Notes: generated from the sequence alone by a model not told the origin. Counted from the first letter of the stretch, positions 3,899 to 64,000 are shown. The stretch is 64,000 bases of DNA from Candidatus Uhrbacteria bacterium RIFCSPLOWO2_01_FULL_47_25 (GCA_001791325.1 MGEK01000004.1:8566-72565); one strand, 5' to 3'. Translations and numbers: made by a program.

Positions 3899-3973
3899 TC
3901 CCGCGCCACCCCTGCCTGACGGCAGTCAGGGGTGGCGCGGTACTCCGGACGGATGACTTTCTAGAATACGGGA
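3899..3973. repeat. Hairpin element TCCCG...CGGGA with internal cctgcc-type hairpin
   Basis: Flanks TAAA/CAAA; internal stem ccgcgccacccctg...caggggtggcgcgg; may also act as a terminator. Confidence 0.45.
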
Positions 3974-3984
3974 CAAACATGTCA

Positions 3985-4020
3985 TATCACCTTTTGTCGC
4001 AATTGCGACAAAAGGTGATA
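3985..4020. repeat. Perfect 36-bp palindrome
   Basis: tatcaccttttgtcgcaa|ttgcgacaaaaggtgata. Confidence 0.9.
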
Positions 4021-4031
4021 ATTAATCGCCA

Positions 4032-4061
4032 TTGACTCGTTTTATAGCCTAGTGCTAGGAT
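4032..4061 (+). promoter_or_regulatory. Sigma70-like promoter
   Basis: TTGACT-18 bp-TAGGAT with TG extension. Confidence 0.5.
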
Positions 4062-4067
4062 TATATC

Positions 4068-5449: not shown

Positions 5450-5718
5450 CCGAGCTCTTCTTCTTTTTTCATAAGGTGTTTGAGCTGGGAGATCGTCTAA
5501 CTGGCCCCGTTAGAATTTACAAGGACTTCCTCCTAAAGCTGCCGGGTCGTCTAACGGTAGGACGCCAGGTTCTGGCCCTGGTAATCTAGGCCCGCCCCCA
5601 CACTAATAAGATCATCTCATAAATTTGTGGTGAAATGTAATAATGTAATGTTGTACATATGCCTGCGGGGTCGTCTAATGGTAGGACACGACGCTCTGGA
5701 CGTCGGTATCTAGGCACG

Positions 5719-5889
5719 CCCCGCACCAATTTAACTTTGTCTAGATGTTATTGTATTATACTTTTACATAAAAAGATCTAAGAAGCCGATCTGGGAGATC
5801 GTCTAATGGTAGGACACGACGCTCTGGACGTCGGTATCTAGGTTCGAATCCTAGTCTCCCAGATTGGTTTCTTAGAAATTGGTGCGGGG
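5719..5889. mobile_element. tRNA-carrying inverted-repeat element (inner layer)
   Basis: Perfect 14-bp TIR ccccgcaccaattt/aaattggtgcgggg. Confidence 0.8.
5792..5862 (+). tRNA. tRNA-Gln(CTG), intact innermost copy
   Basis: Complete cloverleaf with GGTTCGAATCC T-arm; no encoded CCA. Confidence 0.95.
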
Positions 5890-6117
5890 TGAAAGTCCTA
5901 GCCCCGCAGGCATGTGTACAATTTGAGAAAGTTGTTAATCTGAACGATTAGTGTGGGGGTGAAAGTCCTAGTCTCCCAGCTTAGCCACTTTATGAACAGT
6001 TAATTAGTGCTGGGTAAGATAGTCTGATTTCAAAAAATAAAAATGAAAGGGCTTGGCTAGAAAATGATATTTTGCTAAAATAGTCGCAGTAATTATTAAT
6101 CGTATAACGTAATCTTT

Positions 6118-7542: not shown

Positions 7543-7663
7543 CCCCGTTAGAAGTCTGACTTAGCATAATAATTGCGGCTCTAGTCATGAATAAATACAT
7601 CAACCAGTTAAACACTATAATCATCACAGCCCCGCATAGCGGGGCCGAGGACTTCTAACGGGG
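7543..7663. mobile_element. Hairpin mini-element, subfamily A (CCCCGTTAGAAG)
   Basis: TIR ccccgttagaagtc/gacttctaacgggg; flanks TATA/TAGA; homologous to 34481-34602 and 40807-40952. Confidence 0.8.
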
Positions 7664-7685: not shown

Positions 7686-10600
7686 TTGGTGAAAATGTCT
7701 AAATTATTGGGGGCAAAAAAAAGAAAAAACCCCGCACATCACGGACGCAATAAGCCAGTGGCGCGGGGCCAAAGACAAGAAACTCGCGCAAAAAAACGCC
7801 TCAAAGAACGTGTTTTGGGCGTTATTCAGCGTCAGGTCAAATTAAGGGAACTAAAAGTTTTGGCGCGGCGCGGCGTCATAGGTACGGTAGTGGTCGTTTT
7901 GTTTATTTCCAGTCTTTTTGTCAGAGCCGAGCCCAATCCGTTGCTTGTTCATGAAGTAATTTATCCGCAGTCTTGCCGTGGCACTTGGCAGGGGATGAAT
8001 AATATTTTTACGCAGGAGCTTGATGCCAGAGCCGAGGCCGATGATTTTAATAAGACCAATAGCGCCATGCCCGCCTTGGGCGAACCAACTGTTGCGGCAG
8101 TGCCGGGCAAGGAAGAGTACAACGCTTTCACGGTGTCATTGCCAATTCTTGACCAGCAGTCAAATGTTGATACGTTGATGGATCAGCCGTCAGATACAGA
8201 TCAGGATTTACAATTGATTATTCCACCCATTATTCCTTCTCAAGAGGAGTCGCCCGTTGAAAACGCGCCTTCTCAAAATACACCCATTGAAGATAATGAC
8301 AATAATAGTGAAAATAAGAGTTTAGAAAACGCTCCTTCAGAACAAGTTCTTGGGGAAGAGGACAAAGCAGATGATTCCAGTCAGCCGGTAACAGACGAAC
8401 AGCTGTCAACGGAGAAATCCAATGAGGAACAGGAACAGCCGTTATCGCCACCCTCACAACCTCAACCCCAAGAGCCGCTAGATACTCAATTATTTCCAGA
8501 ACCTGAAACAAAGCCATTGGCGCCACCCGACGATACGTTGCCAATGCCGACAGAACCGCCGGCAACAGAACCGTCAGGAGCGGAACCGTCGTCAACAGAC
8601 CAGCCGATAATCAATTTCAACAATTTGTTGGATAAACTGATTAATAAAGCTTTGGCCGAGGAAGACGCTATCCTGAATACAGATACCAACGCGAGTACGG
8701 CAGATACAAATGGCGCCGAAACTAAAGTTGATTCTAATAGCGAGGCAGACGGCTTTAGTGTTGAAGACATAGTGAAATCAGTGGCGGAAAAGATTGGAGA
8801 TATTGTTAGCGATTCTGCCGATAAGGTGAGTGAAATCATCGCGCCAATTACGGCGGAGCCAGTGGATATACAAAATTTAACACCCGGCACCCCGTCCCTA
8901 GAAACAAAACCGGAGGCTGAAGATTCGCCGTCTTTGCTCGGCACTTTATTTGATGCGGTGGGGCAGGCAATATCTGCAATTACGGATTTAATTTCGCCAT
9001 TGCCGCCGTCAGTTTTAGAGGCTCCATCATTCGCGATACAGGATAGTAATATCTTAAAAACGGAAAATGGCACAATGGCCTGTGCAGACTTCACCCCTCC
9101 TGCCACCACGCAAATTGAACAGGCGTCGCTCGGTCTATCATATACTTTAAAAGATCAATCGCCATTGCCAAACGAGCAGTCTGGATTTCTATGGGCTGAA
9201 TATACTCAAGATAGACAGAATTGGATGATATTAAGTTCCATTGAAGACACGAACTCATCAGTTGAATCGGCTTATCATTTATTTAATTTTCCTCCCGACT
9301 TTGACGCTGGACGCATAAGCGAGACCATTGTTCGTTTGCGCTGGTTTGGCAAATATGATGAGCCGGAAATTTTTATAGATAGTTTATGGCTAGATGTTGC
9401 TCGCCTTGGCGACAGTGAGCAGGAAAAGCCTTCGGAATTAAAAACCGCTAAAAAAGATTTTGCCGCTTTTGAGGACCCGGTTTTTAATTTAAGCTTTGAT
9501 CCGCAAGTGCCCCTATCAGCAAAGAGAGGCGTCATATTTGATAACAGCCAGTCGCAATCAATCATAGAAAAGTATAAAGAAAGATATAAGCAGTGGCTGG
9601 AATCATGGGCGAATTTTATTATTCAAAAACCATTGTCATTCGCGCGTAACGCGCTGGCGCAATCTCCGTCGGCTGATCAAGCGACGCCAAACGACGCGGC
9701 TCTATGGCATGAGACTAATCTGGATATTTCCGCGCGTCTATTGACTAAGGATTATGGACCCACTGACATTGTTCCAGAATTATTGCGCTTAAATTCCGGG
9801 CAATTCAAAATATCGCTTGCCGCGCGCGCCTTCCGCCCTGGCGCCTATATTTTACAAACAACAATTCAAAAAGGGGAGAGTGTCCAAACCCTAGAACAAG
9901 ATTTCACTTGGGGGGTACTCGTCGTAAATACTGACCAGTCGGTTTATAAAACCGGCGACGAAGCTTCATTCTTCTTTGGGGTCTTGAACGATAAGGGAGA
10001 GACTGCCTGCGACGCGACGCTTGAAGCGAAAATTACGGATCCTGCAGGACAGGCGGTGACACTAGCCACGGCTGACGGCACCATCAAGTCCTCTAGTTCA
10101 TGCGCGAAAAACAGCGTCACTGATACGCCTGACTATGGGGCGACTTATCATACAACCACGGCAGGCACCTATGCACTGGCAGTGACGGCTACGACGGTTG
10201 AGGGGAGCCACACCATCACTGACACTTTTTCAGCACAAGATGACCTTCCGTACCGCGTTCGTCGCAGAGGCGCGAGTCGTATTTATCCTTTGGCCAAGTA
10301 CGAGATGTCAATTGAAGTTACGGCACGCAATGATTTTAAGGGAACTGTTACCGAGCGCGTTCCGTTAGATTTTATTGTCACGCCGTCGTCGAATTTTGTA
10401 ATTACTGCAGTAGAAGACGCCCAAGCATTAACGTGGGATGTTGCGCTTCAAGCAGGAGAGAGCCAAAACTTCACGTACGAGTATAACGCACCTGACATTT
10501 CTCCAGCCATTTTTCATCTGGGAGAATTTTCTTTAACCGCTTCCGGCGCCGATCAGCCGATATTTATTGAACCCAATCAGTGGGAAATAGCGAGCGACGG

Positions 10601-13600
10601 ACTTGACCCAGTTATTATCCACGCGCCAGAGGTGGCGCTCCGTCCAGAAGTGCGCGGAAAGGCCGAGCGATTAGCAAGAGAGGTGCCGCTTCCCGAGAAC
10701 GTTCCGCATCACACCCGTTCAATGGAAGGAAATTTTGAAAGCCGGAAAATGAATAGACCCGTCAGTCTTGCTCTGGCTCGCGAGCAGGTGCCGCCAAACG
10801 CAAAGATTTCTGTTGTTGACGCTTATGGTAAAGAAATTACTGACGGTATCGTAGTAAATACAGAAGAAGATACTATGACCGTGGATATTAACCCCGATGC
10901 TAAAGGTATGCGCCCGGGAAAATATACTCTTTATGTGACGGATCCTGACACCGAAGAAGTGCTGGCTGAACAGGATTACACTTGGGGAGTGTTGGCTTTC
11001 AACCCTGATTATGCCGTGTATCCGCCTAACACAACAGCCAATCTCTCCTTTGGCGTGCTTGATGATGCCGGGCGGGTGCTTTGCGATGCGGCCTTGGTCG
11101 CTATTATTGCCGATCCTAGCGGGAATGAAACAGTGCTTGGCACTGGCGATGGTTCGATACGGGTAAACGAGGAATGCTATCAAATGGAAGATACGCAGAA
11201 ACCAGATTATGAAGCCAACTTTGACACAACTATTCCCGGTATCTATCAAATGACCATCATCGCCAAAAGTAAAAACGGCGAGCGGACGCTCAATGATTCG
11301 TTTTCTGTTGATCCAAACGCCGCGTTTTACCTCAAGCGCACAGGGCCGACCCGCACATATCATCCAGCCACTTACAATTATTCCCTCGACTTTACCGCCA
11401 AAGAGGCTGGCACTTATGACATAACGGAAAAAGTTCCTGCTTCATTTACTATAACGGGTGATGGTTTTACCGTAACCGAACAAGACCAAACAAAAATTTT
11501 ACACTGGCAAGTAACGGCCGTGGCGGGGGAAACTAAAACACTGGCTTATCGTTTCAAAGGACCGCCGCTCTCGCCGTATCTTTTTTTACTGGGAGCGGCG
11601 GAAGTAAAAACATCCAGCCCAAATCAAACATGGGTTGAGCCCAGAGAGTGGATGCTGGCCTCTGACAACGCTTGCTCTTCCGACGTTGATCCTTCTGGAA
11701 ACTGGAATACAGCTGGTTCATGGACCTCATGCGGTGGCGTGGTACCGACGACAACTGACACCGTCGCCATTGTTGACGGCGATACTATCACGATCGACTC
11801 CGCGCCTAATTCTGTCATTTCCGTCAACATCAATCTCGGTGGTACGTTAAATGGCGGCTCGGCGACTCTCAATATCAACAATACCGCCGCATCTGGCACT
11901 TCTTTTACCAATAGCGGTACGTGGACCTCCTCAACCGGCACCGTTAATTTTGGCAGCGACGTTGCGTTAACAATGCTTTCAGGAAGCTTTATTGGTTCTA
12001 ATAATTTCAATAACATTACCCATACTTTTACTCCCACTGCTGCAAGAACATACACCGTGGGCGCGGCAGTTGAGATTGGTGGTAATTGGACGTCAACTCC
12101 GGGGTCTACCAGTAACGCCCGCGATTTAACCATTAATTTAAGTGGAGCAACTACTGTTACTGGGACACTAACTCTTGATGGTCGAGGTTGTAATAATGGC
12201 GCTGCTGATGGCACCGCTTCTACCACGCAATTTTCTACCAATGGCCAGAACTTAACAGTTCGCGCGATAGTTGTTGATGGTATTACGAATGGGGATGGTT
12301 GCCGATTTACCACAGCTAACTCTTCTGTTGTTACGTTTACGGGGACGGGTACTACGACGCTTTTCACTTTAGGTCAGACAGGTAGCACCGCCTTGATGAC
12401 TACCGGGACTACTACTGAATGGGATGTTACTTCCGTGTCAGGCACCCCGACGCTTTTTTCCACTTCCGGGACAACAATTACCGTCCACATTTTAAAAATC
12501 GCTGCCTCCGCAACCATTGTCAACCTTGGCGCAGCCTTTACGATTGACGCCAATTCTGGAAATAAATTATGGATTAATTCTGGCATTTTAAATCAGGAAA
12601 ACAGAACTATTACCGCCGGAGCTAGCGCAACTCTGCAGATTGATTCTGGCGGCACTTTGTGCTTGGGCGGGACAACTGCTTCCACCACGGCTAATTGTGC
12701 GTCAGGCGCGACTCAAGCTACGGCTCAAGCAATGCCTTCGTTTACCACCTATACTTTTGACGCCGCCTCAACCGTTTCCTACCTTTCTAACGCTAACGTC
12801 GTGTTTTCCAGTACCCCGAACTATGGCAACTTAACGCTCAACCCGGTCTTGATCAGCACCAACCGTACCTATACACCTGGAGGAGCCATGACCATTAACG
12901 GTGATTTCACTATCAACCCTAATGAGTCGTTTACCGATACTCCCTCGCTCACCGTCGATCCACTTAATAACTATACCGTGGCCTCTGGTAAAACCACTAC
13001 CATTACGAAGACCAATGCCGCCACTTCTGTTCTTATTCTGCCGTTAGCAGTGAGCCAATACCTGTCAACAGGTAAGTTAGTCATTGCCAGTGGTGGAACA
13101 CTCAATGGTGCTATCAGTTCTGCCACGATTATCATTAAGGACACCGGCGCGGCTTTTACCAATAGCGGCACTTATACTTATGGCCTCACAAAAGTGTCTT
13201 ATACGAACACCACTAGCTCCACTGTGTTAGGCATGACCGGCACCAGTGGCACGAATGGATATTATGATTTAGACATAAATGGCACTGGAGGAACCCATAC
13301 GCTGGGGGCCAACACCACGGCCAATAATGCCACCACCATTACCGCCGGCACCTTAAACACTTCGGCAGCCAGCAGCTTCACTTTGACCACTAGCACCTTG
13401 AGCATCACGGGCGGTCTAACGGCCAATGCCTCGTTTATCAATATAACCGGAGCCGGCGCGGCTTTTACTAAGTCTGGCACATTTACTTATGGTACTTCAA
13501 CAGTTGAATATACTAATGCTACGGGAGCGACTGTTTTGTCTATGAACAATGTTGGCAGCACCAACGCCTATTACACTATTTGGGTTGCCAATGGCTCTCA

Positions 13601-16600
13601 TACTCTCGGAGGGGATATCCGAGTTTATGGCGATTTAGCATCAGTATCTGGCACCCTTTCTGACGCGACTGATAGCGTAACGGTAGTTGGTAGTGTTACT
13701 TGTTTTGCTGCGTTTGCGTGTGGAACCATTACATTTACGGGCGGCACTTTTACCCAGATCGTCGCTGCTAATCAGACTTTTGGCACGAATGCATCAGATA
13801 GTACTATAGATTGGACTTTTAATAACCTGACTTTTGATAGTTCTTCTGGATCAAACACTATTACTTTAGGTAATATAGGTTTGACTGGTACCGGTCAAAT
13901 TATTGTTAATGGAACATTAACAATTGGCACAGGGGGCACAATGACCACTCTGCAGGCTGATACCTATGACCGCATCATTGACGCGAACATCGTGACCATT
14001 ACCTCAAAAGGAATCTTGTTCGCCTCGTCTTCGGCGTTGTTCACCGTTGCCGGAGCATTTACTCATACTTCCGGCGGCACTTTCACTCACAGCAACGGCA
14101 TTGTCACATTTGACGGCACCGCGGCCTTGAATTTTGTAAATAATACAACGACTTTTTATGATGTGGTGGTTGCTACCGGGGTAACAAGAACAATTACCGC
14201 AGGAGCCAGCAATGTTCTTACTATAGCCAATACTCTGACAATTAATGGAACAGGAAGAATGGTCTCATTTTCTTCCGAACAATTGTATCTTACAAAAAAT
14301 GGTGAAACGCCGCTCATTGTGGGCGGGGCAACAGCAGTGAATGGACTAACCCTTGTTGTATATAGGCCAGCTGGCACGGCCACTAACGTCGCCGCCACGA
14401 CTTATAATTACCTCTATATATTACCGACCGCGGCGACGACATTAACCCTTCTCGGCGCAACCACAGTCAACGTCAACCTTTTAGTGACAGGTCCTGGTGC
14501 CGGTATAGTTGCCACTCTGGACACGAATGGCCAAACCCTCAATGTCGTCGGCGCTGTCGTCGCCGGTTTTGGTACACCGGGTGCTGTTATTATAGGCGCG
14601 AGCACAGTGGATGTGGACGGGGATGTATTAATTTGGGATGTTTCCGGAAGCTATATCAGCATGACTTCGGGCAGCTTGAATGTTGGCGGCAACTGGTCTA
14701 ATGGAGCGAATTCAGTCTTTACTGCCGGCACTGGCACCGTTACTTTTGACGCCGCGGACGCCGGTAACACCATCGCCACGGGCGGAACTGACAGTAACCA
14801 TGATTTTTACGATGTCATCTTTGATAATTCAGCCGGCTCTTGGATATTCCAGACAAACGACGTCTTAATCTCCAATAATTTAACCGTCACAAATACATCG
14901 GCCACAGGAGTTAACGCCTCGGTGAATGTGACGGTCAACGGCAGTGTTACTGGAGCGGGTGTAATTAACATTACTAATAGCGTGACCTTTACCCAAAAAG
15001 TGGCAGCCGTCAGTAAGACTTTCGGCACCACCTCTGGTGCCAATGATTGGACATTTTATAACTTAGCCTTTGAAAACTCCTCGGGACCCCGGACCATTGA
15101 TACTAATGGAGGGTCGGGACAAATTATCGTTTCCAATACCCTAACTATTGGTAATGCCGATGATTCCACGGTGACCACTCTTGACAACAACACTACTAAT
15201 GACCGCATCATTGACGCGAACATCGTGACTATTACCTCTAAAGGAAGCTTGACCGCTTCTTCCTCGGCTTTATTCACCATTGCCGGCGATTTCACCAATA
15301 ACGGCACCTTCACGCATAGTAGCGGCACAGTTACTTTTGACGGCGCGAGCGCCAACATTAACATACCAGACGCGGGCATAACATTTTATAAGGTTATTAT
15401 TGATATCAGTAGCCCCAATGCTAAAACCTTAGTGAACGGTGCCACGATTGCCGTGATGACTGTGGCTAACACCCTCACCGTTAATGGCACTGGCGCCTTG
15501 ACTTCCGGAGGAGGCAATGAACAGGTTAAGCTCACCAAAGACGGCGATACCGGAGGAGTGCCTTTAACGGTTGGCGGTGCCACAGCCGTTTCGGGGGTGG
15601 CCGCTTTTATTTACGCTCCGGCCGGCGCCGCCACCACGGTTACCGGAACTACTTACAGCTCTCTTACTATTAACCCTACTGCGGCTACCACGTTGACGTT
15701 AGGCGAGGCTGTCATAACAAGTGGCGCTTTGTATGTCTTTGGTCCCAATAGCACTACCGCCGCCACTCTAAATACAAATAACTACGACCTGACAGTTGGT
15801 GGAGCCTTGTTTGTCGGTGCATGGTATTTGGGTTATGCCGATGGAGTGGTTAATTTGGGAAGCAGTACGGTTACGGTGAGTGGGGACGTTTGGATAATGC
15901 AAGATACGGGATCCGAACTTGATGCCGGCTCATCTACCCTGACGGTTGGCGGAAACTGGGTTTGGTTTTCCGCCTTTAGCTCCGGCGGTATTTTTACGGC
16001 GGGCACGAGTACCGTCAAATTTAATGCCGGTGATGCAGGGAATACCATTGATGCCGGCGCCGGCGCGTTTAACAACGTTATATTTGACAACGCCGCCGGC
16101 TCCTGGACGTTTCAGACCACGGCGGCGACAATTTCTGGAGATCTCACCATGACCGCGGCCACGCAGGTTAACGCTTCGGTTAATGTTACAGTGAACGGCA
16201 ATGTATCGTGCGGTGTGACATGCGGAACGATTAATATCACAAACGCTGTTACGTTTACCCAATCCGTTGACGCGGCTAAGAATTTTGGCACCAGCGTTGT
16301 CGATGACGCAACAGTCTGGACATTTAGCAGTCTGACCTTTACAGCCACTACAGATACCATAACTACTAGCTCCAATGGCACCGGCAATATAAATGTTACT
16401 GGCACCTTAACTATTTCCGGCTCAACTACTCTGGATGCCGGCGATCGTAATTGGGTTCTATCCGGCGCTGGCACGCCCTTCGCGCGAACCGGAACTTTCA
16501 CCGGAAACACATCCACTTTTAATTATACTTCAACCACCGGAGTTGACGCCCTTTCCTCGGCCGCCATGACCGGTTCTAATGCCTACTACAATCTCACTAT

Positions 16601-19600
16601 CAACTCTTCCGGCGACACCTTCACGGCTGGTGTGGCTGTTGCGGCTACTAACAAAGTGCTCGTAACCGCCGGTATCCTTGCCATGGGTGCCAATGCTTTG
16701 ACCGCAGGCTCCACAGGTGTCACTGACTCTGGCCAAATTAGTGTGGCTTCCGGTCATTCTCTAACCTCAAGTGGCACCGTCACCATCGTTAGCTCGGCCG
16801 CAAGTACAGCGAGTTGCCTTGGCGGAACAACCCTGCCGGGGTGCACTGGCGCAGTGGGCACACTCACTTTATCCACTCTTGTTATCGGTGACGGAGCCAC
16901 CACCATGACCACGGCTTTTGGTGGTACCACTCCGAGCATGGCCATTTCTACGCTTCTCAATATCACTACGAACGCCACCTTCACCGCCGGTACGGGAAGT
17001 ACTATTACTTTGTCAGCGGCTGGCACTCCCATTACTCGAGACGGGAACTTCAGATGCGGTACAAGCACGGTTGCTTATACTTCCTCCACCGGAGTTGACG
17101 CCCTGTCTTCGGCCGCCATGACCGGTGACTGCACAACCGGAAACGCCTTCTACAACCTAGTTATAAACGGTACAAACAATTTTCCCGTTACTAACGATAT
17201 TATTGTTACTAATAATTTAACCGTGACGGCAGGGTCACTTACTGGTACAAGCAATGTAACCGCCAACAGTAATGTTGCCTGTGGCGTTACTTGCGGCTCG
17301 ATTACTTTGACCGGCGGCACGTTTCTCCAATCAGTAGGGGATGCCAAAAATTTTGGCACAAATGTAGACGAAGACGATACTTGGACATTTAACAATCTTA
17401 CTTTTACAGCCACCACAGATACCATAACCACGAGTTCCAATGGTACTGGCAACATAAATGTTACTGGCGACTTAACTATTTCCGGCTCAACCACTCTGGA
17501 CGCAGGAGACAGAACATTCGTTTTGTCAGGTAGTTCCGGCTCGCCGTTCGTGAAAACAGGCACTTTCACTTACAATACTTCCACGATTAAATATACTGGT
17601 ACGACAGTAACGGTATTATCTATGACCGGCACCGGTGGTAGTGATGGGTACTATAATCTCACGGTGGACGGCACCGGGCCATTTAACGCCGGCGGAGCAA
17701 TTGTAGCAAATAACGATGTCACGGTAACGTCCGGCACACTGGCTATGGGGGCGAACGCCCTCACAGTGAACGGCGGCGACATCTCGGTCAGCGGTATCTT
17801 CTCGCAAACCGCGGGCAGCGCCACCACAGTTGTCACTACTGGCTCCATTGGAGGCGCGGGTACTACGACCTTTGGCGAGCTTAACATTGGCACTGGTTCA
17901 AGTGACCAAACTACTACGGCTGGCGGCGACTTCACTGTCTCCGGCGTTCTGACCACTGTCTCATCTTCCAGCACCAACAATTTTGACGCTTCTTCTAAGA
18001 CCATCACCCTCTCGGGCACAGGCACGCCGTTTGTGAATAACGAGACGTTTACTTATGGGACTTCCACTATAAAATACACTGGCAGTGATACCACCACAGT
18101 TCTTGCGATGACTGGCACCGGTGGGACAAATGGATATTATAAATTGATAACTCAAGGCACAGGTCCGTTTAACGCTGGCGGAAGTATCACAGCCAACAAC
18201 AATATCAACATTACGAGCGGCACTTTTGCCGTTGGCGGAAACACCTTAATTGGTGCCAATATCACTGTTGACGGCGGTTCGTTGTCGGCAACAACGAGCG
18301 GCGGAAAAATTAAAATTTCCGGCGGCGGAGATTTGTCCGTCACGAGCGGAAGCATTGTTACGGCTGATGTGGCGACCCCGGTTGAAATCACAAGTTCTGA
18401 TACCGCTACGCCAACCTATGTTGGCGTGAGCGTTACTGGCGCTTCCAGTACAATAAATATCCCCGAATTGGATATTGATTATTTAAAGAGCACGGGATTT
18501 GTCGTTGGCGCGAGCGTTACCGTCACGGCCATGGATAAGGTGAGATGGGGCGGGAGCGGTGGAACATGGAATGGACAGGCGGCGGTGGGCGAAGTGCTGT
18601 TAGACGCCACGAGTTTAACTAAGACGCTTGATGGTCATGTTTTTCCAAATACATGGGCGAGCCAAGGCGGTTCTGATTGCAACGTCAGAGCGAATACTGA
18701 TGGTACTGTCACCATGACAAATTTTTCCGGAACATATAGTGGCGAAGACTATGATTGCGATAATGGCGGTACGGTAACATGGGTCAGCGGGCTCTCGATA
18801 GCCGGCACGGTTTATACTGACGAAGGGTCAACTCGTATGACCACTGGACCGACCGTGCGCGTAAAAGTTGATGGAGCAGGGGACTTCAGTGATGTGGCAG
18901 ATACTACCAATTGCCCGGGGAGTAGCCCCTGCGGTGAATACCTTATCACAGGTGTCACTCCTACGGACAGCGGAGCAGTGCTTACGATTTATCTTGATGA
19001 TGAAACAGAGAATGCCACCACTGTCACCATATCGAGCGGCTTGGATTTAACGGGCATAGACCTTTACCAAAATCGTGTCATCGTGCGATACGAAACCGGC
19101 AGCAGTATTACTAATACCAATTTAGACCAATATGACTGGGTTAACGAAGGTGATGCGAATATTGATGGAGACATTGGTTTCCAGGTGACAGCCGGCGCTT
19201 TGACAGTCTCTAAAGACAGAGAACTCCACATCTGGACAGGCAAGACTTTCACGCCGGGCGGAAGCGTTACCACAAATACCGGAGGCAGTGGAGTTGGTGG
19301 AGACGTCCATATTGTGGGAATTTTTACAGCCACGACTACCGAGAGTCATTCGGTCGGCGGCTCCTGGACTGATACTGGCACGTTCAATCCCGCCAGCTCA
19401 ACGGTCACGTTTGCCGCCACCTCTGGCACGAAAACCATCACTTCAACCGGCTCGTCATTTTATAATTTGATTATCAACGGTTCGGGCGGCGAGTTTCAGC
19501 CACAAGACGCCATGGTTGTTACAAACGACCTTACTATAACCGCGGGCACGCTGTCGGGAACGCAAAACGTGACGGTTAACGGCCATGCTGTAGGTACCGC

Positions 19601-21356: not shown

Positions 21357-21357
21357 T

Positions 21358-21512
21358 GAAGAATATGGAATATTGAATATGGAATATAGGGATGTGCTGT
21401 GAAGAATATGGAATATTGAATATGGAATATAGGGATCGTTGATTTGAGAAAATTAATTGAAGAATATAAAATTTAGAATATAGGGATCGAACGGTGGAGA
21501 ATATTGAATATA
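21358..21512 (+). repeat. GAATAT(N) heptamer arrays upstream of four-helix-bundle gene 1
   Basis: Several runs of gaatatg/gaatatt/gaatata; 21382-21527 is identical to 26922-27067. Confidence 0.9.
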
Positions 21513-21516
21513 CATT

Positions 21517-22953
21517 ATGAAAAGTGAGATTAAGTCATTTAGAGATTTGGTGGTATGGCAAAAAGCATCTGCTTTGGCAACTTTGCTGTATAAAGTTACG
21601 GAAAATTTTCCTAAAACAGAAATATATGGAATAACAAGTCAGATGCGACGGGCAGCGGTATCGGTTTCTTCTAATATTGCCGAGGGATTTAAAAGAAATT
21701 CAAAAAAAGAAAAAGTGCAGTTTTATTCAATGGCTTATGGGTCTCTTTCGGAATTGGAAAGTCAAATAGAAATTTCTTTTCGTCTGGAATATTTAACAAT
21801 TACTAACTACGATCAAATTTTATCCGCAATCAACGAAGTTTCTCGACTCCTAGACGGTATTATTAGGTCCACTAATAGAAATTATCAAAGTAGGTTTGAT
21901 GTTCTCGTTGCTGTATCTATATTCTATATTCTATATTCTATATTCCCAATCTCACCGGCTAATGCTGGTGAAATTGGTCTGGCTGTCACAAGAAACCGCT
22001 TTGATATTGAGATGCTCTCGGGCGACACATACAAGGGTGATTTAGCCGTGTATAATAAATCAGCAGACGCCGCCTTGCCTGTGCACGTGGAATTGGCGCT
22101 CTGGAACATTAAAGAGGATTCTGAAGATATTGAGTTTGTTCAAGCGGAGTCATTGCTTAATGCCACACGTTGGTTTGAGGTTCAGCCGAAAGATTTTATT
22201 TTAGACCAAGGCGGCGATAGGCAAATTAAGTTTGAGATCACGGCTCCCAAAGACGCTTCGCCCGGAGCGTACTTGGTAATGATGCGTTTTCAGGCGGTTT
22301 TGCCGGAACATTATTTTTTGAAAGAAGGTCCAAGATTTTTGCCCGAGATTGGCGTTTTGTTTTTCATCAATGTCAGAACACTGGCCATTGACAGCGCGGC
22401 AGAAAATAATCGCTTAAATATCGTTTCATTTGAACCCGAAGGGACGCATCGCTTAACTTTTATTGACCGTTACGTGGTAAGTCCTGCCAATGCTGGCGTA
22501 TTTGACGAAGCAGTAAAAAAATTAGTGGCTAAAATTGAAAATAAAAGCATCTATTATTTTAAAGCCTCCGGCTTTGTCGTTATTAAAAACTTGTTTGGCC
22601 AGACAGTGTCACTCATTAAAATTCCCGAAAAATTTTTACTTCCCAACCGTACTCGCAGCATCCCCATCACCGTTATCACACCACCAACGGAACAATCAAA
22701 ATCCAATATTCTATATTCCATATTCTATATTCTTCAACAACAAACATACCTCGGCCCCTACACCGCGACACTAACGCTCAACGTTCCATCAAGCAATGGG
22801 GGAGTAGAGCCAATTTCAGAATCAATCAATTTCTGGATTATCCCATGGAAGTTTTGGTCGGCCGTTATTATTATAGCGTTGTTAATCGCGTTCATTATAT
22901 TAAAATTGCGGCGTCGGCTTCGGCCGGCACTAAGTGCGCTGATCGGACGCTGA
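21517..22953 (+). CDS. Four-helix-bundle (23S rRNA IVP/Avd-like) domain fused to a DUF916/WxL-interacting-like surface protein
   Basis: FRDLVVWQKA, FPKTEIYGITSQMRRAAVSVSSNIAEG, YGSLSELESQ; then hydrophobic IFYILYSIFP-ISPANA; Ig-like body; C-terminal TM and basic tail. Confidence 0.85.
   Translation: MKSEIKSFRDLVVWQKASALATLLYKVTENFPKTEIYGITSQMRRAAVSVSSNIAEGFKRNSKKEKVQFYSMAYGSLSELESQIEISFRLEYLTITNYDQILSAINEVSRLLDGIIRSTNRNYQSRFDVLVAVSIFYILYSIFPISPANAGEIGLAVTRNRFDIEMLSGDTYKGDLAVYNKSADAALPVHVELALWNIKEDSEDIEFVQAESLLNATRWFEVQPKDFILDQGGDRQIKFEITAPKDASPGAYLVMMRFQAVLPEHYFLKEGPRFLPEIGVLFFINVRTLAIDSAAENNRLNIVSFEPEGTHRLTFIDRYVVSPANAGVFDEAVKKLVAKIENKSIYYFKASGFVVIKNLFGQTVSLIKIPEKFLLPNRTRSIPITVITPPTEQSKSNILYSIFYILQQQTYLGPYTATLTLNVPSSNGGVEPISESINFWIIPWKFWSAVIIIALLIAFIILKLRRRLRPALSALIGR
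21916..21945 (+). repeat. TCTATAT heptamer array (reverse complement of the upstream array), translated in frame
   Basis: tctatattctatattctatattctatattc encodes SIFYILYSIF. Confidence 0.9.
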
Positions 22954-23031: not shown

Positions 23032-23463
23032 ATGGATATGAACAAGGTTAAGGATTTCTTGTATGAAAAGGAGTCGTATCAGATTAGAGGAGCGTGTTTT
23101 GATGTTTATAAAGCATTTGGTGGAGCATTTAAGGAAAAAATAGTGGATCGGGCGCTTACTAAATCTCTGGCTAAACGCGGATTAAAAGTGGACGAACAAA
23201 AACGTATAAACATTTTGTATGATGGTGAAAAAATTGGTACCTATATTCCCGACAAAATCGTAAATGATGCTATTATTTTAGAAGTGAAGGCAAAAAGTTT
23301 TATCACCAAAGATGATATAGATCAATTTTGGAAATATTTGAAAGGGTCAGACTATAAATTAGGATTCCTTGTAAATTTCGGTCCGGCAAAATTAGAAATA
23401 AAAAGAGTGGTATATGATTCAGCCAGACCAGTTCGGCGTGTTTCGGCGTCCTTATCGGCGTGA
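23032..23463 (+). CDS. GxxExxY family protein (PD-(D/E)XK nuclease fold)
   Basis: SYQIRGACFDVY..FGGAFKEKIV; IPDKIV..IILEVKA; LGFLVNFG. Confidence 0.88.
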   Translation: MDMNKVKDFLYEKESYQIRGACFDVYKAFGGAFKEKIVDRALTKSLAKRGLKVDEQKRINILYDGEKIGTYIPDKIVNDAIILEVKAKSFITKDDIDQFWKYLKGSDYKLGFLVNFGPAKLEIKRVVYDSARPVRRVSASLSA

Positions 23464-24959: not shown

Positions 24960-25904
24960 ATGAAAATTCGCTACTCGCCATCATCCTTTATTGCTTTTTT
25001 AGTCGGTGGATTAACGGTGGGCGTGATCATGTCGCCAACCGCAGTGATGGCGCAAGCAGTAAAAACTCTCACTATCTCACCCCTCACTTTTGAACTAACC
25101 GCCAATGCGGGCGAGACTATATCTAATGTCTTAAAGATATATAACAATAACGATTTTAATATATCAGCCAACATTGATGTTGAAGATTTTGCTCCGGCCG
25201 GAGAGACCGGTCAAGCAGTGGTTACCGAACCGCAGGAGGATAATACCTATTCTTTGGCTCGTTGGATTACGGTTGAGGAAGAAACATTTGAAATAGAGGC
25301 ACAAAATTTTCGGCCGATTACTTTTCATGTTAACGTTCCCCTGAACGCCGAGCCGGGAGGGCACTACGGAACAGTACTTGCTTCTATCGCCGATGGTGGT
25401 GGCGAGGGCGGAGTTAGCGTGGCATCTAAAGTAGGCGCGCTTTTACTGCTTCAGGTGGCTGGTACGGCTAAAGAGTCTCTAAACGTCGCCAGTATGGGAG
25501 CGCCGAATTTTTCCGAATACGGGCCCGTAACCATTGCCACGAGATTCCAAAATACTGGCACTGTCCATTTAAAGCCGCGGGGGTTTATTTTAGTGCAAAA
25601 TATGTTTGGCCAAGAAACAGCCAAATTAAATTTAGACCAGAAAAATGTGTTGCCTAACTCGGTGCGTAGGATAGAATCAAAATTAGACGAGAAATGGCTA
25701 TGGGGTAAATATACGGCGACCTTGACGGCGATTTACGGTTCAACCAATGAGCCACTTTCTTACACCACAACTTTTTGGGTGATCCCTTGGCGGGTGAGTT
25801 TGGCTGTCGGCCTCATACTATTGATCGTTTTCATTATTCTTTATCGGGCTCGTCGGCGGATATTTTTGGCGCTCAAAATTCTCTTAAAGGGTGAACATAG
25901 TTGA
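24960..25904 (+). CDS. DUF916/DUF3324-like (WxL-interacting-like) membrane-anchored protein
   Basis: Signal peptide; LTISP..FEL; PGGHYG; FQNTGTVHLKPRG; VLP..VR; C-terminal TM and RARRR. Confidence 0.7.
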   Translation: MKIRYSPSSFIAFLVGGLTVGVIMSPTAVMAQAVKTLTISPLTFELTANAGETISNVLKIYNNNDFNISANIDVEDFAPAGETGQAVVTEPQEDNTYSLARWITVEEETFEIEAQNFRPITFHVNVPLNAEPGGHYGTVLASIADGGGEGGVSVASKVGALLLLQVAGTAKESLNVASMGAPNFSEYGPVTIATRFQNTGTVHLKPRGFILVQNMFGQETAKLNLDQKNVLPNSVRRIESKLDEKWLWGKYTATLTAIYGSTNEPLSYTTTFWVIPWRVSLAVGLILLIVFIILYRARRRIFLALKILLKGEHS

Positions 25905-51293: not shown

Positions 51294-51325
51294 AAAACTC
51301 TCATACTACATAGTATGATAGTTTT
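51294..51325. repeat. Near-perfect palindrome, copy of 31579-31610
   Basis: aaaactctcatactacatagtatgatagtttt. Confidence 0.8.
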
Positions 51326-52162: not shown

Positions 52163-52261
52163 CCTCGCACCATGCCTGCTGAATAGGCAGGGCTTGTGCT
52201 GTGTATTTGAGTATTCCTCCTCACGCTACGCTGACGCGTGGTAATTCTGCATGGTGCGGGG
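52163..52261. mobile_element. Hairpin mini-element, subfamily C
   Basis: cctcgcaccatgc/gcatggtgcgggg; flanks TTTA/TTCA; 3' part similar to 31698-31803. Confidence 0.75.
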
Positions 52262-56896: not shown

Positions 56897-57101
56897 CCCC
56901 GCACCTTTCGGCGTTACGAACGCCAGTACTAAAGCATATTTTTCTTTATGACTTATTATAATACCTATTCAATTCAACCAAGCGTTAATGCCAGCGTTCG
57001 TCATGAAGGCCGTGGCCTTGCAGTTTCAGTTATTGATTCTTTGTGGTCACCCGCGCTAGTGCGGTCAAGCCAAAGAACGCTAACGCCGTAAAGGTGCGGG
57101 G
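56897..57101. mobile_element. 205-bp hairpin element between CIRCE and the clpB ATG
   Basis: ccccgcacctttcggcgtta/taacgccgtaaaggtgcgggg; flanks CTAA/TATG. Confidence 0.78.
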
Positions 57102-59754: not shown

Positions 59755-59866
59755 CTCACGTGTCTTGAATTATTAACCGTCATGGCTTTATCCCTGCCGG
59801 CCGCCTACCTGCCGCAGGCAGGGTTGGTGCGGCGCCCGAGGCGGATGGCTTTCTCAAGGCGTGGGG
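59755..59866. mobile_element. Degenerate hairpin element at the clpB stop codon
   Basis: ctcacgtgtcttga/tcaaggcgtgggg; flanks CTAA/TAAA; nested cctacctgccgcaggcagg. Confidence 0.55.
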
Positions 59867-59906: not shown

Positions 59907-61295
59907 TTGAGCATGAAAACCGGGATATATTATCTATTGATGTGCTTATTTATTTTTTCTGCAGCACTACATGGTGCGCAAGCGCAAGAATTGAATAATC
60001 ATACTCAAGCCAGGCCATTTAATCCAAATTTTATCATTGATGATTATGAATTTATCGACGTTAGTTCAATGTCGGTGGAAGCAATTAGAAGATTTCTTAA
60101 CAGCAAAAGCGGTATTTTAAAATCATATAGCGTAATTGACATAGACGGGGTAGAGCGCGATGCTGCAGAAATCATTGGACGCGCCGCCCTTAATTACTCT
60201 ATAAATCCAAAATTCATCCTTGCCCTCCTGCAAAGGGAACAAAGTTTAATTGAAGATTCCAATCCCTCCACTCGCGATCTTGATTGGGCTACGGGTTATG
60301 CGGTTTGCGATAGTTGCAGTACGGATGATCCGGGTATTCAAAAGTTTAAGGGCTTTGCCATTCAAGTTGATCGCGCCGCTTGGAGGCAACGATATTATTA
60401 TGAACATCCTTTTGAATTTGGGGTTCGCGTCGGCGGAACGAGTCTTATTGATAATACGCTTATCACGCCCGTCAACCAGGCAACGGCCAACCTTTACATT
60501 TACACGCCACATCTTAACGGAAACCGAAATTTTTGGACTATTTGGAATGATTATTTTTCTAGAAATTATCCCGACGGCACTATTCTAAAAGAGCGAGACA
60601 CTGACAATATCTGGCTTTTAACAAATGGGAAATTGCGATTAGTTACTTCGCGCGCCACTATGATGGCAGACTATGATCCTAATAAAATTATAATCGTTTC
60701 CACGAACGATATCATGCGTTATGACATTGGTGTCCCTATAAAATTTCCTAACTATTCACTCCTACGTTCGCCCCGGGGGACAGTTTACTTATTAGTGAAT
60801 GACGTTCGCCGAGGTATTACCTCGCGCGAAATATTCCGAGGCTTGGGTTTTAACCCAGAAGAAATCATTGATGCCTCATGGGAAGATCTAAACCTATATA
60901 GCGAGGGGGTACCAATCACTTCCACTGAAGCTCAACCGCTTGGAGAATTACTGCAAAATAAAATAACAGGCGGCGTTTATTACGTGGCTTATGGCGTACG
61001 TCATCCGATTAAATCACGAGAAATATTGCGCAATCGCTTCTCCCGCTATCCCATAAAACCTGTATCTCCAGAAATGTTGTCAAAATATTATCTTGGAGAT
61101 GCTGTAAAATTTAAGGACGGCGAGCTGGTAACTACGTCTGGTGAGACAACCGTTTACGTTATATCCAACGGACAAAAAAGACCAGTAGTATCAAGCGAAG
61201 TATTCACCGAGCTTGGCTACAGATGGTCTAATATTATCCATACGACTCCCGATGCTGTAGCAGTTCATCCTGATGGAGCGCCCATAACAGGTTAA
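59907..61295 (+). CDS. Secreted protein, putative cell-wall-related, with C-terminal repeats
   Basis: Signal peptide; INPKFILALLQREQSL; NQATANLYIYTPH; repeated VY.I....KR.I.S.E.F..LG units. Confidence 0.6.
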   Translation: MSMKTGIYYLLMCLFIFSAALHGAQAQELNNHTQARPFNPNFIIDDYEFIDVSSMSVEAIRRFLNSKSGILKSYSVIDIDGVERDAAEIIGRAALNYSINPKFILALLQREQSLIEDSNPSTRDLDWATGYAVCDSCSTDDPGIQKFKGFAIQVDRAAWRQRYYYEHPFEFGVRVGGTSLIDNTLITPVNQATANLYIYTPHLNGNRNFWTIWNDYFSRNYPDGTILKERDTDNIWLLTNGKLRLVTSRATMMADYDPNKIIIVSTNDIMRYDIGVPIKFPNYSLLRSPRGTVYLLVNDVRRGITSREIFRGLGFNPEEIIDASWEDLNLYSEGVPITSTEAQPLGELLQNKITGGVYYVAYGVRHPIKSREILRNRFSRYPIKPVSPEMLSKYYLGDAVKFKDGELVTTSGETTVYVISNGQKRPVVSSEVFTELGYRWSNIIHTTPDAVAVHPDGAPITG

Positions 61296-61306
61296 TCTAA
61301 ACATCT

Positions 61307-62113
61307 ATGGCTCTGGTTTTTGCTGCTATTGTTCCCCACTCACCTATTTTTATTCCCGATATCGGTAAAGATAACCTTGCGGAGCTTCAACATACTATTC
61401 AGGCCCTCCAACAAATCAGTAAACAACTAGTTATGGCTAGCCCAGAAACGATTATATGCATAACTAATCATCCCGTCGGTAAAGACAATTTAAACAATGC
61501 TCTCGTTTTTAATTTAAATTCACACTACCAAACAAATTTTGAAGAATTCGGCGAATATGGTAATACTTTTATGATTCCCGGAGACCCGGCTCTAACTTAT
61601 CATTTGAAGCATCGCTTTGATTCAGAGCGTGATAAATACCCTATCGCTGTGACCAGCGAACAAAAATTGGATGGCAGCATAAGCTCTCCGCTTTTTTATC
61701 TTTTGAAAGGACAGCCCAATATACATCTGGTGCCAATGAGCGACACCATAGAGGATGATCGTCCAGAATTTGTGCTTGGCGGGAGGCTGCGGCGACCTAT
61801 TTATCAGGAAAAAAAAAGAATTGGGCTTTTCGCTATAATGAACTTATCTCATCGCCTGAACGATAAATCTCCGGCTGGTTATTCGCCAAAAGCTAAATCG
61901 TTTGATCAACGCGTGATCGCGGCTATTACTAAGAATAAAGTTACTACACTTCTTCGCCTCAAGAAAGAAACCTTGCTGGAAGTCAAAGAATGTGCTGTGC
62001 GTCCCCTATTGTTATTGTTCGGTATATTGAAAAATACCAATTACACACCGGATTTATTATCTTATGAAAGTCCTTTTGGCATAGGCCACGCTGTAATAAA
62101 TCTTAAACTCTAA
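61307..62113 (+). CDS. Memo/LigB-fold protein (AmmeMemoRadiSam protein B-like)
   Basis: AAIVPHSP..IP.IG; LSHRL...SPAGY; EC; LSYESPFGIGH. Confidence 0.8.
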   Translation: MALVFAAIVPHSPIFIPDIGKDNLAELQHTIQALQQISKQLVMASPETIICITNHPVGKDNLNNALVFNLNSHYQTNFEEFGEYGNTFMIPGDPALTYHLKHRFDSERDKYPIAVTSEQKLDGSISSPLFYLLKGQPNIHLVPMSDTIEDDRPEFVLGGRLRRPIYQEKKRIGLFAIMNLSHRLNDKSPAGYSPKAKSFDQRVIAAITKNKVTTLLRLKKETLLEVKECAVRPLLLLFGILKNTNYTPDLLSYESPFGIGHAVINLKL

Positions 62114-62131
62114 TGTAGAAAACAGTGAGCT

Positions 62132-64000
62132 ATGTCAATCAGGCGTTCGTCTAATGATCAATTTGCCAGCATAGTTCCGTTAGTTTATATACCTCGCGGA
62201 TTTGATCAGGAGTTTATTTATCGCATACCACGAACAGTGGTAAACCCCGTTAGAGAACTGGCACGGGGCATTAGACCCAGTGCTCGTACTGGTAAATTAC
62301 ACCCCGCGGAATCCACCAGCTGGCGGAGTGGGGCATTCTCTAACGGGGTAAATATAGTCGCCGGTCAGCCGGTCACGGTTAATTTTCGCAAAAAAACAAT
62401 TCAAGGAATAGTGCGTCGCACGTTTAATAAGCCGGCATCTTTAAAAACAATACTAGATATTAAATCAGTACTTCCATATCTCCCGTTAACAAAGGGGCAA
62501 TTGGCGATCATAGATACATTAGAAAATTATTATGGCGCTAGCAGGACTTTAGCCTATAAGACGGTGGTTGTAAAATTCGCTATGAATCTAAGGTTGGAGC
62601 ATAAGCGATCTCATCAAAAAATTAAATATCCAGCGCTTACTGAAACAAATCAACAAACGCTCCTTTTACTTCTTCGGGCTAAACCCAAACTTACCATCAG
62701 CGGCGCGCTTTATGATCCGCGCCATTCTTTATTTATTGAGTATATACGCCAACGCATCAAAAACAAGGGCCAGATCCTTTTGCTTTTTCCAGATAATGAG
62801 TCAGCAGAAATTGTTAAAGAGTCTTATGAAAAATATTTTAATGAGGCCGCTTTGGTAATTTGGTCATCTCAAGCGCCTATTGGTCAGCTCAGTCGAGACT
62901 GGATGCGCATTAGCACGGGAGAGGCTAGCATCATATTAGCCACGCGGAGCGGGCCATTTTTACCATTTAAATCTTTGCGAGCGATCATCCTTTTTGATGA
63001 AGCCGACAATAATTATAAATCATGGGATCAACAGCCATATTACGATACAAGGCTACTTGCCGAAAAGTTATCGGAGACTGAACAAATACCTTTGCTGACA
63101 ACACGGCTTTTGCCGCCCTTACAATCACGTCACCAAGTGCTTAGTATAATTTCCAGAAAAAAAGCTGCTTTAGTAACTATTTTTGATCGTCAAACGCTTT
63201 ATAAAGAAAACCCCAAGGCTATTATCCCCGAAGAAGTAATGACCTTCATTGGAAAATCGTCGCCAAGCGAGCAGAGCTTGGTTTTTATTAATCGTCTCGG
63301 TTACGCGGCTCTTTTTTGTCGCGATTGCGGCTATATTTTTCGCTGCCAGAATTGCGATACACCGTTAATACATGTTTCAAACCAATCCAATGGAGCGAAT
63401 ATACGATGTTACAAATGCAGTCACGTTGCCATAACACCTGTCTTTTGTCCACAGTGTCGTTGTGTCCACCTGCGATATTTTGGCGTCGGAGTAGAAAGAA
63501 TACACGAAGAGTTAATTAAACAATTCCCCCATAAACGTATTCAACGCCTAGACCGCGCTTATTTAAAAACCGGCCCCAGTCTTCAGCAGTTGCTTGATAA
63601 TATTAGAAACCATCGCGTTGATATTACAATAGCTACCTCTATTATTCTGCCGCGTCTGTGGTCTTTACCTTTATTCAACACGACAGTGGTCTTACAGGCC
63701 GAAAGCTTATTTTTGACAACGGGTTGGCGGGCTTATGAAAATGGATTAACCGCTCTTCGTCAACTGCGAACAGCTACTAAAGGGCATTTTTACGTTGAAA
63801 CAAGTTTGCCCAATCATCCAGTGATTAAATCTTTGCAGTCAACAAATCTAAAAAACTTTTTCACTAGTGAGCTTGCTGAAAGAAAAAGATTTAACTATCC
63901 TCCATATTCCAGGTTGATCAAATTAATTGCCAAAAGAAGTGACGCTGGCATAAGCTCTAATGAAATTGGCAGATTGGGCAATATTGAAACGATTGAAATA
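62132..64000 (+). CDS. priA: Primosomal protein N', 3'-truncated by the window edge, with an in-frame 36-aa insertion
   Basis: Absent from the ORF track because it has no stop in the window. FIYRIP..GQPVTVNF..GIV; TRSGPFLP; FINRLGY; CRDC/CQNC Zn knuckles (in frame with ATG 62132); FNYPPY. Confidence 0.9.
   Translation, partial: MSIRRSSNDQFASIVPLVYIPRGFDQEFIYRIPRTVVNPVRELARGIRPSARTGKLHPAESTSWRSGAFSNGVNIVAGQPVTVNFRKKTIQGIVRRTFNKPASLKTILDIKSVLPYLPLTKGQLAIIDTLENYYGASRTLAYKTVVVKFAMNLRLEHKRSHQKIKYPALTETNQQTLLLLLRAKPKLTISGALYDPRHSLFIEYIRQRIKNKGQILLLFPDNESAEIVKESYEKYFNEAALVIWSSQAPIGQLSRDWMRISTGEASIILATRSGPFLPFKSLRAIILFDEADNNYKSWDQQPYYDTRLLAEKLSETEQIPLLTTRLLPPLQSRHQVLSIISRKKAALVTIFDRQTLYKENPKAIIPEEVMTFIGKSSPSEQSLVFINRLGYAALFCRDCGYIFRCQNCDTPLIHVSNQSNGANIRCYKCSHVAITPVFCPQCRCVHLRYFGVGVERIHEELIKQFPHKRIQRLDRAYLKTGPSLQQLLDNIRNHRVDITIATSIILPRLWSLPLFNTTVVLQAESLFLTTGWRAYENGLTALRQLRTATKGHFYVETSLPNHPVIKSLQSTNLKNFFTSELAERKRFNYPPYSRLIKLIAKRSDAGISSNEIGRLGNIETIEI
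62245..62348. mobile_element. Hairpin mini-element, subfamily B, in frame within priA
   Basis: ccccgttagagaa/ttctctaacgggg; TAAA duplicated; 104+4 = 108 bp. Confidence 0.88.

Follow-up and report, generated by a model that had tools for sequence, protein, structure and literature searches.

The 64,000-nt window analysed here, part of contig C4 of Candidatus Uhrbacteria bacterium RIFCSPLOWO2_01_FULL_47_25, carries a family of short hairpin-ended inserts, and these inserts are real mobile DNA, present in about 180 copies in the source genome (G000; 1.2 Mb, 40 contigs). There is, in our estimate, an even chance that they are gene-less miniatures of elements of ~280-300 bp whose sole gene encodes an 86-residue GIY-YIG nuclease, the likely mover, acting by single-strand cutting and joining at 4-mers. 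A family link between the mini-elements and the GIY-YIG element is very probable; that the nuclease is the mobiliser of the family is probable; and we are somewhat less confident that the flanking 4-mer is sometimes carried rather than duplicated, a 3' TGAA moving with the element. Coordinates are positions in the window unless a contig is named; end types are called A, C, D and E, “cluster” denotes an interior subfamily, and the congener is genome G001, compared over all 62 contigs (772 kb).

Comparison with the congener gave an alignable junction for 71 of the 172 outermost G000 elements; by automatic call, 56 of these junctions were empty or other, 12 held an element of the same type and three held one of a different type. 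No element stands at the dnaB or recR start in the congener. For nested copies there are empty paralogs carrying a single CGAG or TCTA, the filled site showing a net addition of 4 bp. These empty orthologous and paralogous sites, together with the lack of an enzyme in the window, bear out an earlier sequence-only reading of this DNA, which had proposed a mobile family resembling MITEs (miniature transposable elements that have inverted repeats); size (<500 bp) and terminal inverted repeats are likewise those of MITEs. No transposase family was matched by Pfam profiles among the 43 open reading frames (ORFs) of the window, and mobilisation is therefore taken to occur in trans. The same reading's “no transposase” is accordingly true of the window, while a candidate enzyme lies inside a family member on contig C13.

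Across G000, 178 end pairs were found for three end types and 183 once a fourth type was added: 111 of type A (CCCCGTTAGA), 62 of type C (YCCCGCACC), eight of type D (CCCCCACACT) and two of type E, with end-to-end spacings of 26-365 bp. Identical 4-bp flanks accompany 86 of the 183 pairs; for the set of 178 the count is 84, versus 12.1 (maximum 22) in 500 flank shuffles, and match length peaks sharply at 4 bp (six 3-bp matches and one 5-bp match). The YNNR rule proposed earlier for the flanks is obeyed by 83 of 83 exact matches in G000 and 31 of 31 in the congener, counting elements of at least 60 bp and dropping shorter ones. A purine precedes the target in 64 of 72 cases (cluster 1 left out), giving the junction pattern R-element-Y with YNNR flanks. 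The elements had been thought to share only a 5-bp terminus; instead, ends are conserved over ~9-16 bp within a family, as family-specific inverted repeats, the earlier groups A and B share CCCCGTTAGA, and the element at 5595 starts CCCCC. The 4-mer and, mostly, its orientation are specific to subfamilies: a right-hand TATG is found in 36/50 and 10/13 members of two of them, and TTTA in 8/11 and 10/11 members of two others (cluster 0 contains a few mis-joined nested copies). TATG follows an element end in 62 cases, 57 of which open a frame of at least 60 codons, the baseline for all TATG sites in G000 being 2391/8862. At least 10 copies of the A-type end word are present in 23 of the 301 genomes examined in the class, with a patchy distribution.

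In the window itself, a generic rule detected 10 end pairs, compared with 0-1 in each of 30 second-order Markov simulations, and the ends paired into a stem in fold predictions of 11 of 12 elements. Clear inverted-repeat elements of 99-365 bp stand at 13 of the 15 positions listed by the sequence-only reading; the two others are a degenerate copy (59755) and a doubtful hairpin (3899):

3899-3973: doubtful; a local hairpin of 44 bp, the end of which matches CGGGA at 3969-3973 over 5 bp at most
5595-5959: D-type element, ends CCCCCACACTAAT, 365 bp, starting CCCCC, flanks CCCG / TGAA; in the T-loop of a tRNA-Gln(CTG) relic; contains the C-type element 5719-5889
5719-5889: C-type element, ends CCCCGCACCAATTT, 171 bp, flanks CACG / TGAA; inserted in another tRNA-Gln(CTG) relic, at the T-loop; cargo, an intact tRNA-Gln(CTG)
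7543-7663: A-type element, cluster 0, 121 bp, flanks TATA / TAGA
31698-31803: C-type element, 106 bp, flanks TGAA / TGAA
32149-32253: A-type ends, cluster 2 (the earlier group B), 105 bp, flanks TTAA / TTAA; directly 3' of the rplU stop; missing from the corresponding congener junction
32924-33065: E-type element, ends CCCCGTATATC / CCCCGTAATAC, 142 bp, flanks CATA / CATA; on the likely recR start; congener site without element
34481-34602: A-type element, cluster 0, 122 bp, flanks CATA / CATA; dnaB start codon; congener site empty
35433-35533: A-type ends, cluster 2, 101 bp, flanks TTTA / TTTG
40807-40952: A-type element, cluster 0, 146 bp, flanks TATG / TATG; start codon of a Na/H exchanger gene
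43360-43496: C-type element, 137 bp, flanks TCCA / TCCA; within an HtrA-like protease gene
52163-52261: C-type element, 99 bp, flanks TTTA / TTCA
56897-57101: C-type element, cluster 4, 205 bp, flanks CTAA / TATG; just before the Clp ATPase start
59755-59866: degenerate possible member, 3' of the Clp ATPase stop
62245-62348: A-type ends, cluster 2, 104 bp, flanks TAAA / TAAA

The flank matches reported earlier were all recovered, seven of them exact (TATG, on the gene strand, at 32924, 34481 and 40807; TTAA at 32149; TAAA at 62245; TCCA at 43360; TGAA at 31698) and three at 3 of 4 positions (7543, 35433 and 52163). In the HtrA-like gene the frame is preserved, the 137-bp element plus 4 bp making 141 bp, or 47 codons, and the congener protein is without this 47-codon insert. 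Near the congener counterpart of 52163-52261 lies a 39-bp A-type element, ~4 bp off, and at the junction of 56897-57101 the congener carries an A-type element. On the other side of 56897-57101 from the Clp ATPase start is a CIRCE-like operator arm; the right arm of such an operator, with TATG, is abutted by two elements of different end types (C4:224-460 and window 56897).

The A-type element at C13:7615-7899 (285 bp, TATG to its left and right) encodes an intact 86-aa GIY-YIG protein, and the stop of this ORF falls in the right end; none of the remaining five small GIY-YIG genes of G000 has these ends. Of the best 80 of 434 confirmed homolog loci, 70 were bracketed by such ends (274-324 bp), with exact 4-bp matches in 41 of the 70; the A word starts 66 of these loci, for which flank shuffling yields 9.7 matches. 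The ORFs usually stop in the right end or the 4-mer. By title, the homolog records are mostly from Patescibacteria, with some from other phyla. A C-type pattern requiring the left end and the start of a GIY-YIG gene only returned 99 distinct loci, 65 of them GIY-YIG-like; 59 of the 65 are closed by a right end and 16 have exact flank matches. Related genes are bracketed by five further end types; no clear D-type autonomous element was found, the D pattern returning CCCCCCACC and CCCCGCAC ends. Protein identity is 43% between A and C, versus 63% within A and 49% within C, a comparison that is partly circular because the A set was picked by protein similarity. An enzyme that reads only the hairpin base, as first envisaged, is hard to reconcile with a GIY-YIG clade for each end family and 9-16 bp of conserved end. 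A homolog (E < 1e-25) is present in 9 of 22 genomes with at least 10 A-type end words versus 9 of 278 others, an association tallied by hand over related genomes that are not independent.

In GIY-YIG elements inserted after ATGAA (L043, L047, L048, L054, L061-L063, L065, L067, L094 and L107), the host start codon and the nuclease ORF share one frame, and the end plus TGAA restores an ATG or GTG for the host gene. Eleven of the 59 closed C-type elements (L264, L271, L274, L285, L289, L292, L293, L296, L301, L325 and L358) share one spot near the 5' end of an apparent RNase P RNA, where they seemingly replace a helix with no duplication; Rfam gave one weak support among three such loci (L274, E 3.6e-7, below gathering score). 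Four free small GIY-YIG genes of G000 adjoin tRNA-like sequence (C34:20678-20923, C34:5366-5572, C25:8025-8243 and C21:488-715), one of them with an internal TAG.

The nuclease residues Y5, Y16, G18, R26, H30 and E62 recur unchanged in all 118 proteins compared, a single His excepted, and in an alignment by eye the core residues match the positions mutated in SsnA (Y6, Y17 and E64) according to the available text of PMC11893778. A Slx1-like fold is predicted (mean pLDDT 89.9), with UPF0213/Slx1 nearest: 1zg2 is closest both by sequence (E 5.8e-6) and by Foldseek (E 2.5e-3), Slx1 also being retrieved, while Foldseek returned nothing for the model at E ≤0.001 and NCBIfam only a sub-threshold match to TIGR01453. 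The protein is also predicted to be a homodimer, scoring 0.55 where the highest of three controls scored 0.00; among solved pairs 20 of 30 reach the mark used, and among single chains 1 of 23. Contacts agreed 100% between runs, with partner pLDDT of at least 83. The predicted interface comprises residues 47-57, 60-61 and 77-81, and includes the invariant non-catalytic Y48, E50 and R61.

The flanking 4-mers had been read as target duplications. Identical 4-mers do occur far above shuffled expectation, but a match need not be a duplication, as sites with a foreign TGAA indicate. TGAA accounts for only 3 of the 86 exact matches. At mismatched sites it lies on the 3' versus the 5' side 13 versus 2 times in G000 (73 sites) and 6 versus 0 times in the congener (31 sites), or 19 versus 2 combined (p = 0.0002). 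An exact empty site exists in the T-loop of an intact tRNA-Gln(TTG) (window 40210-40220, + strand); its filled counterpart, G001:C11:17833, holds a C-type element with the target 4-mer kept on the left and an extra TGAA on the right. Abutting ends in G000 are separated by a 4-nt gap in 7 of 8 cases, and the right-hand 4-mer clusters on the nuclease tree (64 rows, poorly resolved), with 20 changes versus 28.9 when shuffled.

We postulate that the two ends would pair into a stem on exposed single-stranded DNA and that a nuclease dimer would cut 3' of the 4-mer on each side, such that the excised unit keeps its 3' 4-mer. The unit would then be joined 3' of a target 4-mer that is usually, but not always, equal to the one carried; equal words would mimic a target duplication, and unequal words would leave a foreign 4-mer such as TGAA. 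The joining step would call for a strand-transfer activity of some kind, or for host ligase and repair. Survivors would mainly be harmless insertions, at start codons, stop codons and RNA helix ends or in frame, while in others the cargo would substitute for the broken tRNA gene. A precedent for the cleavage, as the accessible part of PMC11893778 describes it, is SsnA, which cuts single-stranded DNA, and that on a single strand only, a few bases upstream of a hairpin. A more far-reaching version can be advanced only tentatively, and we would sooner expect it to fail than to hold: the 86-residue GIY-YIG homodimer would be a stand-alone transposase of a new chemical class, lifting hairpin-ended single-stranded units with one tetranucleotide, that word selecting a matching site; units could be exchanged in place and would become indispensable by holding the sole working copy of a tRNA gene they had broken.

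Exchange in place is relevant to seven start codons found by hand to hold a different element in G001: that of the Clp gene (window 56897, C versus A), C7:6735, C7:9169, C20:22493, C27:20374, C28:4729 and C38:9288. About two would be expected (p = 0.002, with proxy denominators), and a stricter count is 5/24 (p = 0.03); at two of the seven, mismatched flanks are identical between the genomes. These coincidences could reflect hot spots or in-place exchange alike. C38:8680 lacks an 8-bp spacer that the congener has, as if it had been deleted, and at C7:12967-13079 (L166) the element occupies the place of a short hairpin seen in the congener and in two family members.

In G000, 12 of 48 tRNA genes are enclosed by 11 catalogued elements of type A or C, and not one of these elements has flanks that match exactly. 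When any GC-rich inverted repeat is allowed, 15 of 48 are bracketed, with flanks that best match a tRNA for the same amino acid in six; the congener figures are nine of 38 bracketed and four in same-amino-acid flanks, and these flank counts depend on the chosen match threshold. The cargo had been called arbitrary, and interiors are indeed unrelated, but tRNA cargo often matches the tRNA gene that the element has broken. The window has a nest at 5485-5979, in which broken tRNA-Gln(CTG) copies surround the D element, which surrounds the C element, which holds the sole intact copy:

5485-5516 (+): oldest tRNA-Gln 5' fragment (fragment ~5485-5504), interrupted at 5505 by an unpaired A-type end, by eye
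5539-5594 (+): 5' part of the outer broken tRNA-Gln(CTG); its 3' tRNA part, ~5960-5979, lies past the D element
5663-5718 (+): 5' part of the inner broken tRNA-Gln(CTG); 3' part, ~5890-5910
5791-5863 (+): intact tRNA-Gln(CTG); no other was called in G000

The ends around tRNA-Val(TAC) are of type C in G000 and of type D in G001, the flanks being the same. Homology-led events and strong selection are both candidate routes by which a matching tRNA could have reached its own gene. An origin of the T-loop inserts as self-splicing tRNA introns was weighed but dismissed, given the intact tRNA copy inside the insert. Other tRNA loci of the window are irregular as well:

37888-38154: tRNA-Thr(CGT) (38012-38083) within end type CCCGCCTGCCATCGC, nested in a broken tRNA-Thr, the relic of which at 37888-37946 was detected by Rfam
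38195-38344: tRNA-Gly(CCC), called twice with overlap; one call is likely a relic holding an inserted hairpin
40148-40243: tRNA-Gln(TTG) with its acceptor stem lengthened by a 12-13-bp inverted repeat; at a tRNA-Gln(TTG) the congener has a 96-bp unit with other arms and a broken copy close by

A number of observations weigh against single-strand cutting and joining by the GIY-YIG protein. Rare 4-mers of many kinds make up 17 of 84 exact matches, and flank matches of 3, 5 and 7 bp exist, both of which a staggered-cut duplication fits better. TATG also has a side bias (14 versus 1), which selection for start codons explains equally well; left flanks in tRNA loops (CACG, CCCG, CCTG and CTTG) often fit neither the target nor the subfamily word; and cluster 1, which lies within another repeat, is found there in either orientation. 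Four of 18 listed runs, all of them contigs, showed neither an empty allele nor a circle junction; one joint that leads from 33065 to 32922 in reverse, with the depth of the genome, may reflect a tandem copy. Of the 22 word-rich, or burst, genomes, 13, the congener included, have no close homolog in the assembly. Searches of MITE interiors against the nuclease gene gave no homology (best nhmmer E 1.1, tblastn E 0.026), and descent of the interiors from that gene, which we had considered, was not borne out by these searches; the interiors are also unrelated among themselves. The dimer prediction may have passed through resemblance to solved GIY-YIG complexes. Finally, GIY-YIG enzymes are hydrolytic nucleases and are not known for strand transfer.

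Some of these points would be met if a GIY-YIG dimer made a true duplication, nicking double-stranded DNA 4 nt apart at R^YNNRY with host fill-in, mismatched flanks arising later by adjacent deletions and recombination between copies. Exact flanks at about half of the elements, the sharp 4-bp peak, the single CGAG or TCTA in empty paralogs of nested copies, a symmetric YNNR target suited to a dimer and the deletion-like loss of the spacer at C38:8680 all agree with it; yet it accounts neither for the foreign word TGAA, exactly 4 nt, at the exact empty site nor for the 19:2 bias, and requires added selection for subfamily 4-mers of fixed orientation; we regard it as unlikely. The element swaps and the fit of tRNA cargo to the broken gene are in line with homing or gene conversion, in which the nuclease would only nick sites, whether empty or occupied, and host recombination would copy an element from an allele or incoming DNA; this would give in-place swaps (seven versus about two expected, p = 0.002 on proxy denominators) and import replacement tRNAs, and it has precedents, in the available texts, in the homing-endonuclease fold of GIY-YIG proteins (PMC1564403) and the action of SsnA on transforming DNA (PMC11893778). 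Homing alone, however, cannot seed more than 150 unrelated sites with flank homology of at most 4 bp, and hot spots (purine-rich context, conserved genes) may account for the coincidences, which on the stricter count are 5/24 (p = 0.03); we think it rather improbable.

A GIY-YIG passenger in ordinary MITEs, moved in trans by an unfound DDE or HUH transposase, appears slightly less probable still. The architecture is that of a type II MITE as the accessible portion of PMC10969869 presents it, repeats are often lost from an assembly of 40 contigs, the search comprised six transposase families, and three of five burst genomes have IS4/IS5-type genes. Within those six families, G000 gave no match to Y1_Tnp (PF01797), DDE_Tnp_1 or IS1380, the PF01797 control being positive in 6 of 14 genomes, and one weak partial match only to IS110 (PF02371). 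Two true IS110 loci in another genome (G028) are without these ends, and in all, 12 of 12 DDE/IS110/IS1595 loci bear other ends, IS4/IS5-type genes included; moreover, a passenger is unlikely to be the sole conserved gene over several end families. Long G000 members with a known transposase were looked for and rejected, long pairs being mostly neighbouring miniatures around housekeeping genes among the matches listed. Known transposases do not account for the family in the tested set. Neither outcome that would have refuted the earlier reading (no empty orthologous sites, or termini of a described IS family) turned up in these tests, which gave empty sites on the one hand and different ends in the known transposases compared on the other. 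G000 also has two tyrosine recombinases and an IS1595-family element (C39:56470-57305), which has ends of its own kind and a duplication of 8 bp. Conserved regulatory RNA hairpins or terminators would suit the gene-boundary positions and the pairing of ends in folds of 11 of 12 elements, but this reading is largely refuted by empty sites (element-free congener junctions at 56 of 71 by the automatic call, and the empty paralogs of nested copies), with Rfam at gathering score returning tRNAs only in the window; its chance of being right is very small.

Comparison with described systems places the family near several of them. Type II MITEs (Correia, QMITE and Chunjie), as the part of PMC10969869 available to us has it, are alike in their size (<500 bp), their terminal inverted repeats and stable stem-loops, the direct repeats that flank them, a likeness to the parent that stops at the ends, and nesting; here, in contrast, the putative parent has a gene for a GIY-YIG protein of 86 aa but none for a recognised transposase, the flank repeat seems at times to be carried, sites include start codons, and replacement tRNAs occur. 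Another system that resembles the family is Ssn (Chenal et al. 2025, PMC11893778), in which, on the evidence of the accessible text, a small single-domain GIY-YIG gene (<150 aa) stands between its own repeats and hundreds of gene-less NTS/SRM repeat copies are hairpin-linked; its authors liken NTS-ssnA-NTS to an insertion sequence. The SRM repeats are 20-50-nt hairpins, whereas here long-range end pairs enclose a gene or cargo and have 4-bp flank matches. In that portion of the paper, cleavage and control of transformation are shown rather than mobility, and the terms “duplication” and “Patescibacteria” are absent. The proposed cut-and-join model resembles IS200/IS605 and the REP/TnpA-REP HUH systems, which, in the available part of PMC6006769, have a single-strand substrate, hairpin recognition, an end tetranucleotide with a target tetranucleotide, and many gene-less copies; the last tetranucleotide of IS200/IS605 belongs to the element. 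The TGAA sites fit an end tetranucleotide of this sort, while matched sites cannot tell it from duplication. Unlike IS200/IS605, G000 has no HUH/Y1 protein, its elements have true terminal inverted repeats rather than subterminal hairpins with guides, and the 4-mer differs between subfamilies. Slx1-like/UPF0213 stand-alone GIY-YIG nucleases are the nearest solved sequence and fold, and are not described as enclosed by inverted repeats in the accessible text of PMC1564403.

The replacement tRNAs invite one further comparison, and the window holds other repeats. Here, the enclosed tRNA is a whole gene in an element of 100-370 bp with no integrase, in contrast to the partial att copy of tRNA-targeting integrative elements (phages and genomic islands), which disrupt a tRNA gene and provide a substitute for it. 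Heptamer repeats of the GAATATAG type form a family apart; they surround 23S-IVP/bAvd four-helix-bundle domains joined onto the beginnings of larger ORFs, and also occur near a PD-(D/E)XK (PF13366) gene. Two 300-bp copies are 87% identical. These and the remaining features are:

7686-21356: 4556-aa ORF with many internal repeats and weak Pfam matches, likely a giant surface protein
21354-21572, 22696-22755, 25899-25944, 26897-27112, 27462-27529 and 30009-30248: heptamer repeats
23032-23463: PD-(D/E)XK (PF13366) gene
31580-31609 and 51295-51324: palindromic 30-bp boxes, 93% complementary and 19.7 kb apart, possibly the operator of a regulator

No description of this element family, and no GIY-YIG protein described as a DNA transposase, was found in the literature searched, subscription journals lying largely outside it. 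If the proposal is true, few autonomous transposons would be as small as this element, with its 280 bp and its enzyme of 86 residues, and it would make a compact tool needing two short ends only. It would also make testable a suggestion left open in the accessible text of PMC11893778, that small GIY-YIG genes spread their own repeats. The streamlined genome of an ultra-small bacterium is thought to leave little room for mobile DNA. In G000 no fewer than 57 likely start codons have been touched by the family, and one in four tRNA genes lies inside its ends; it is therefore a main force of change in such a genome.

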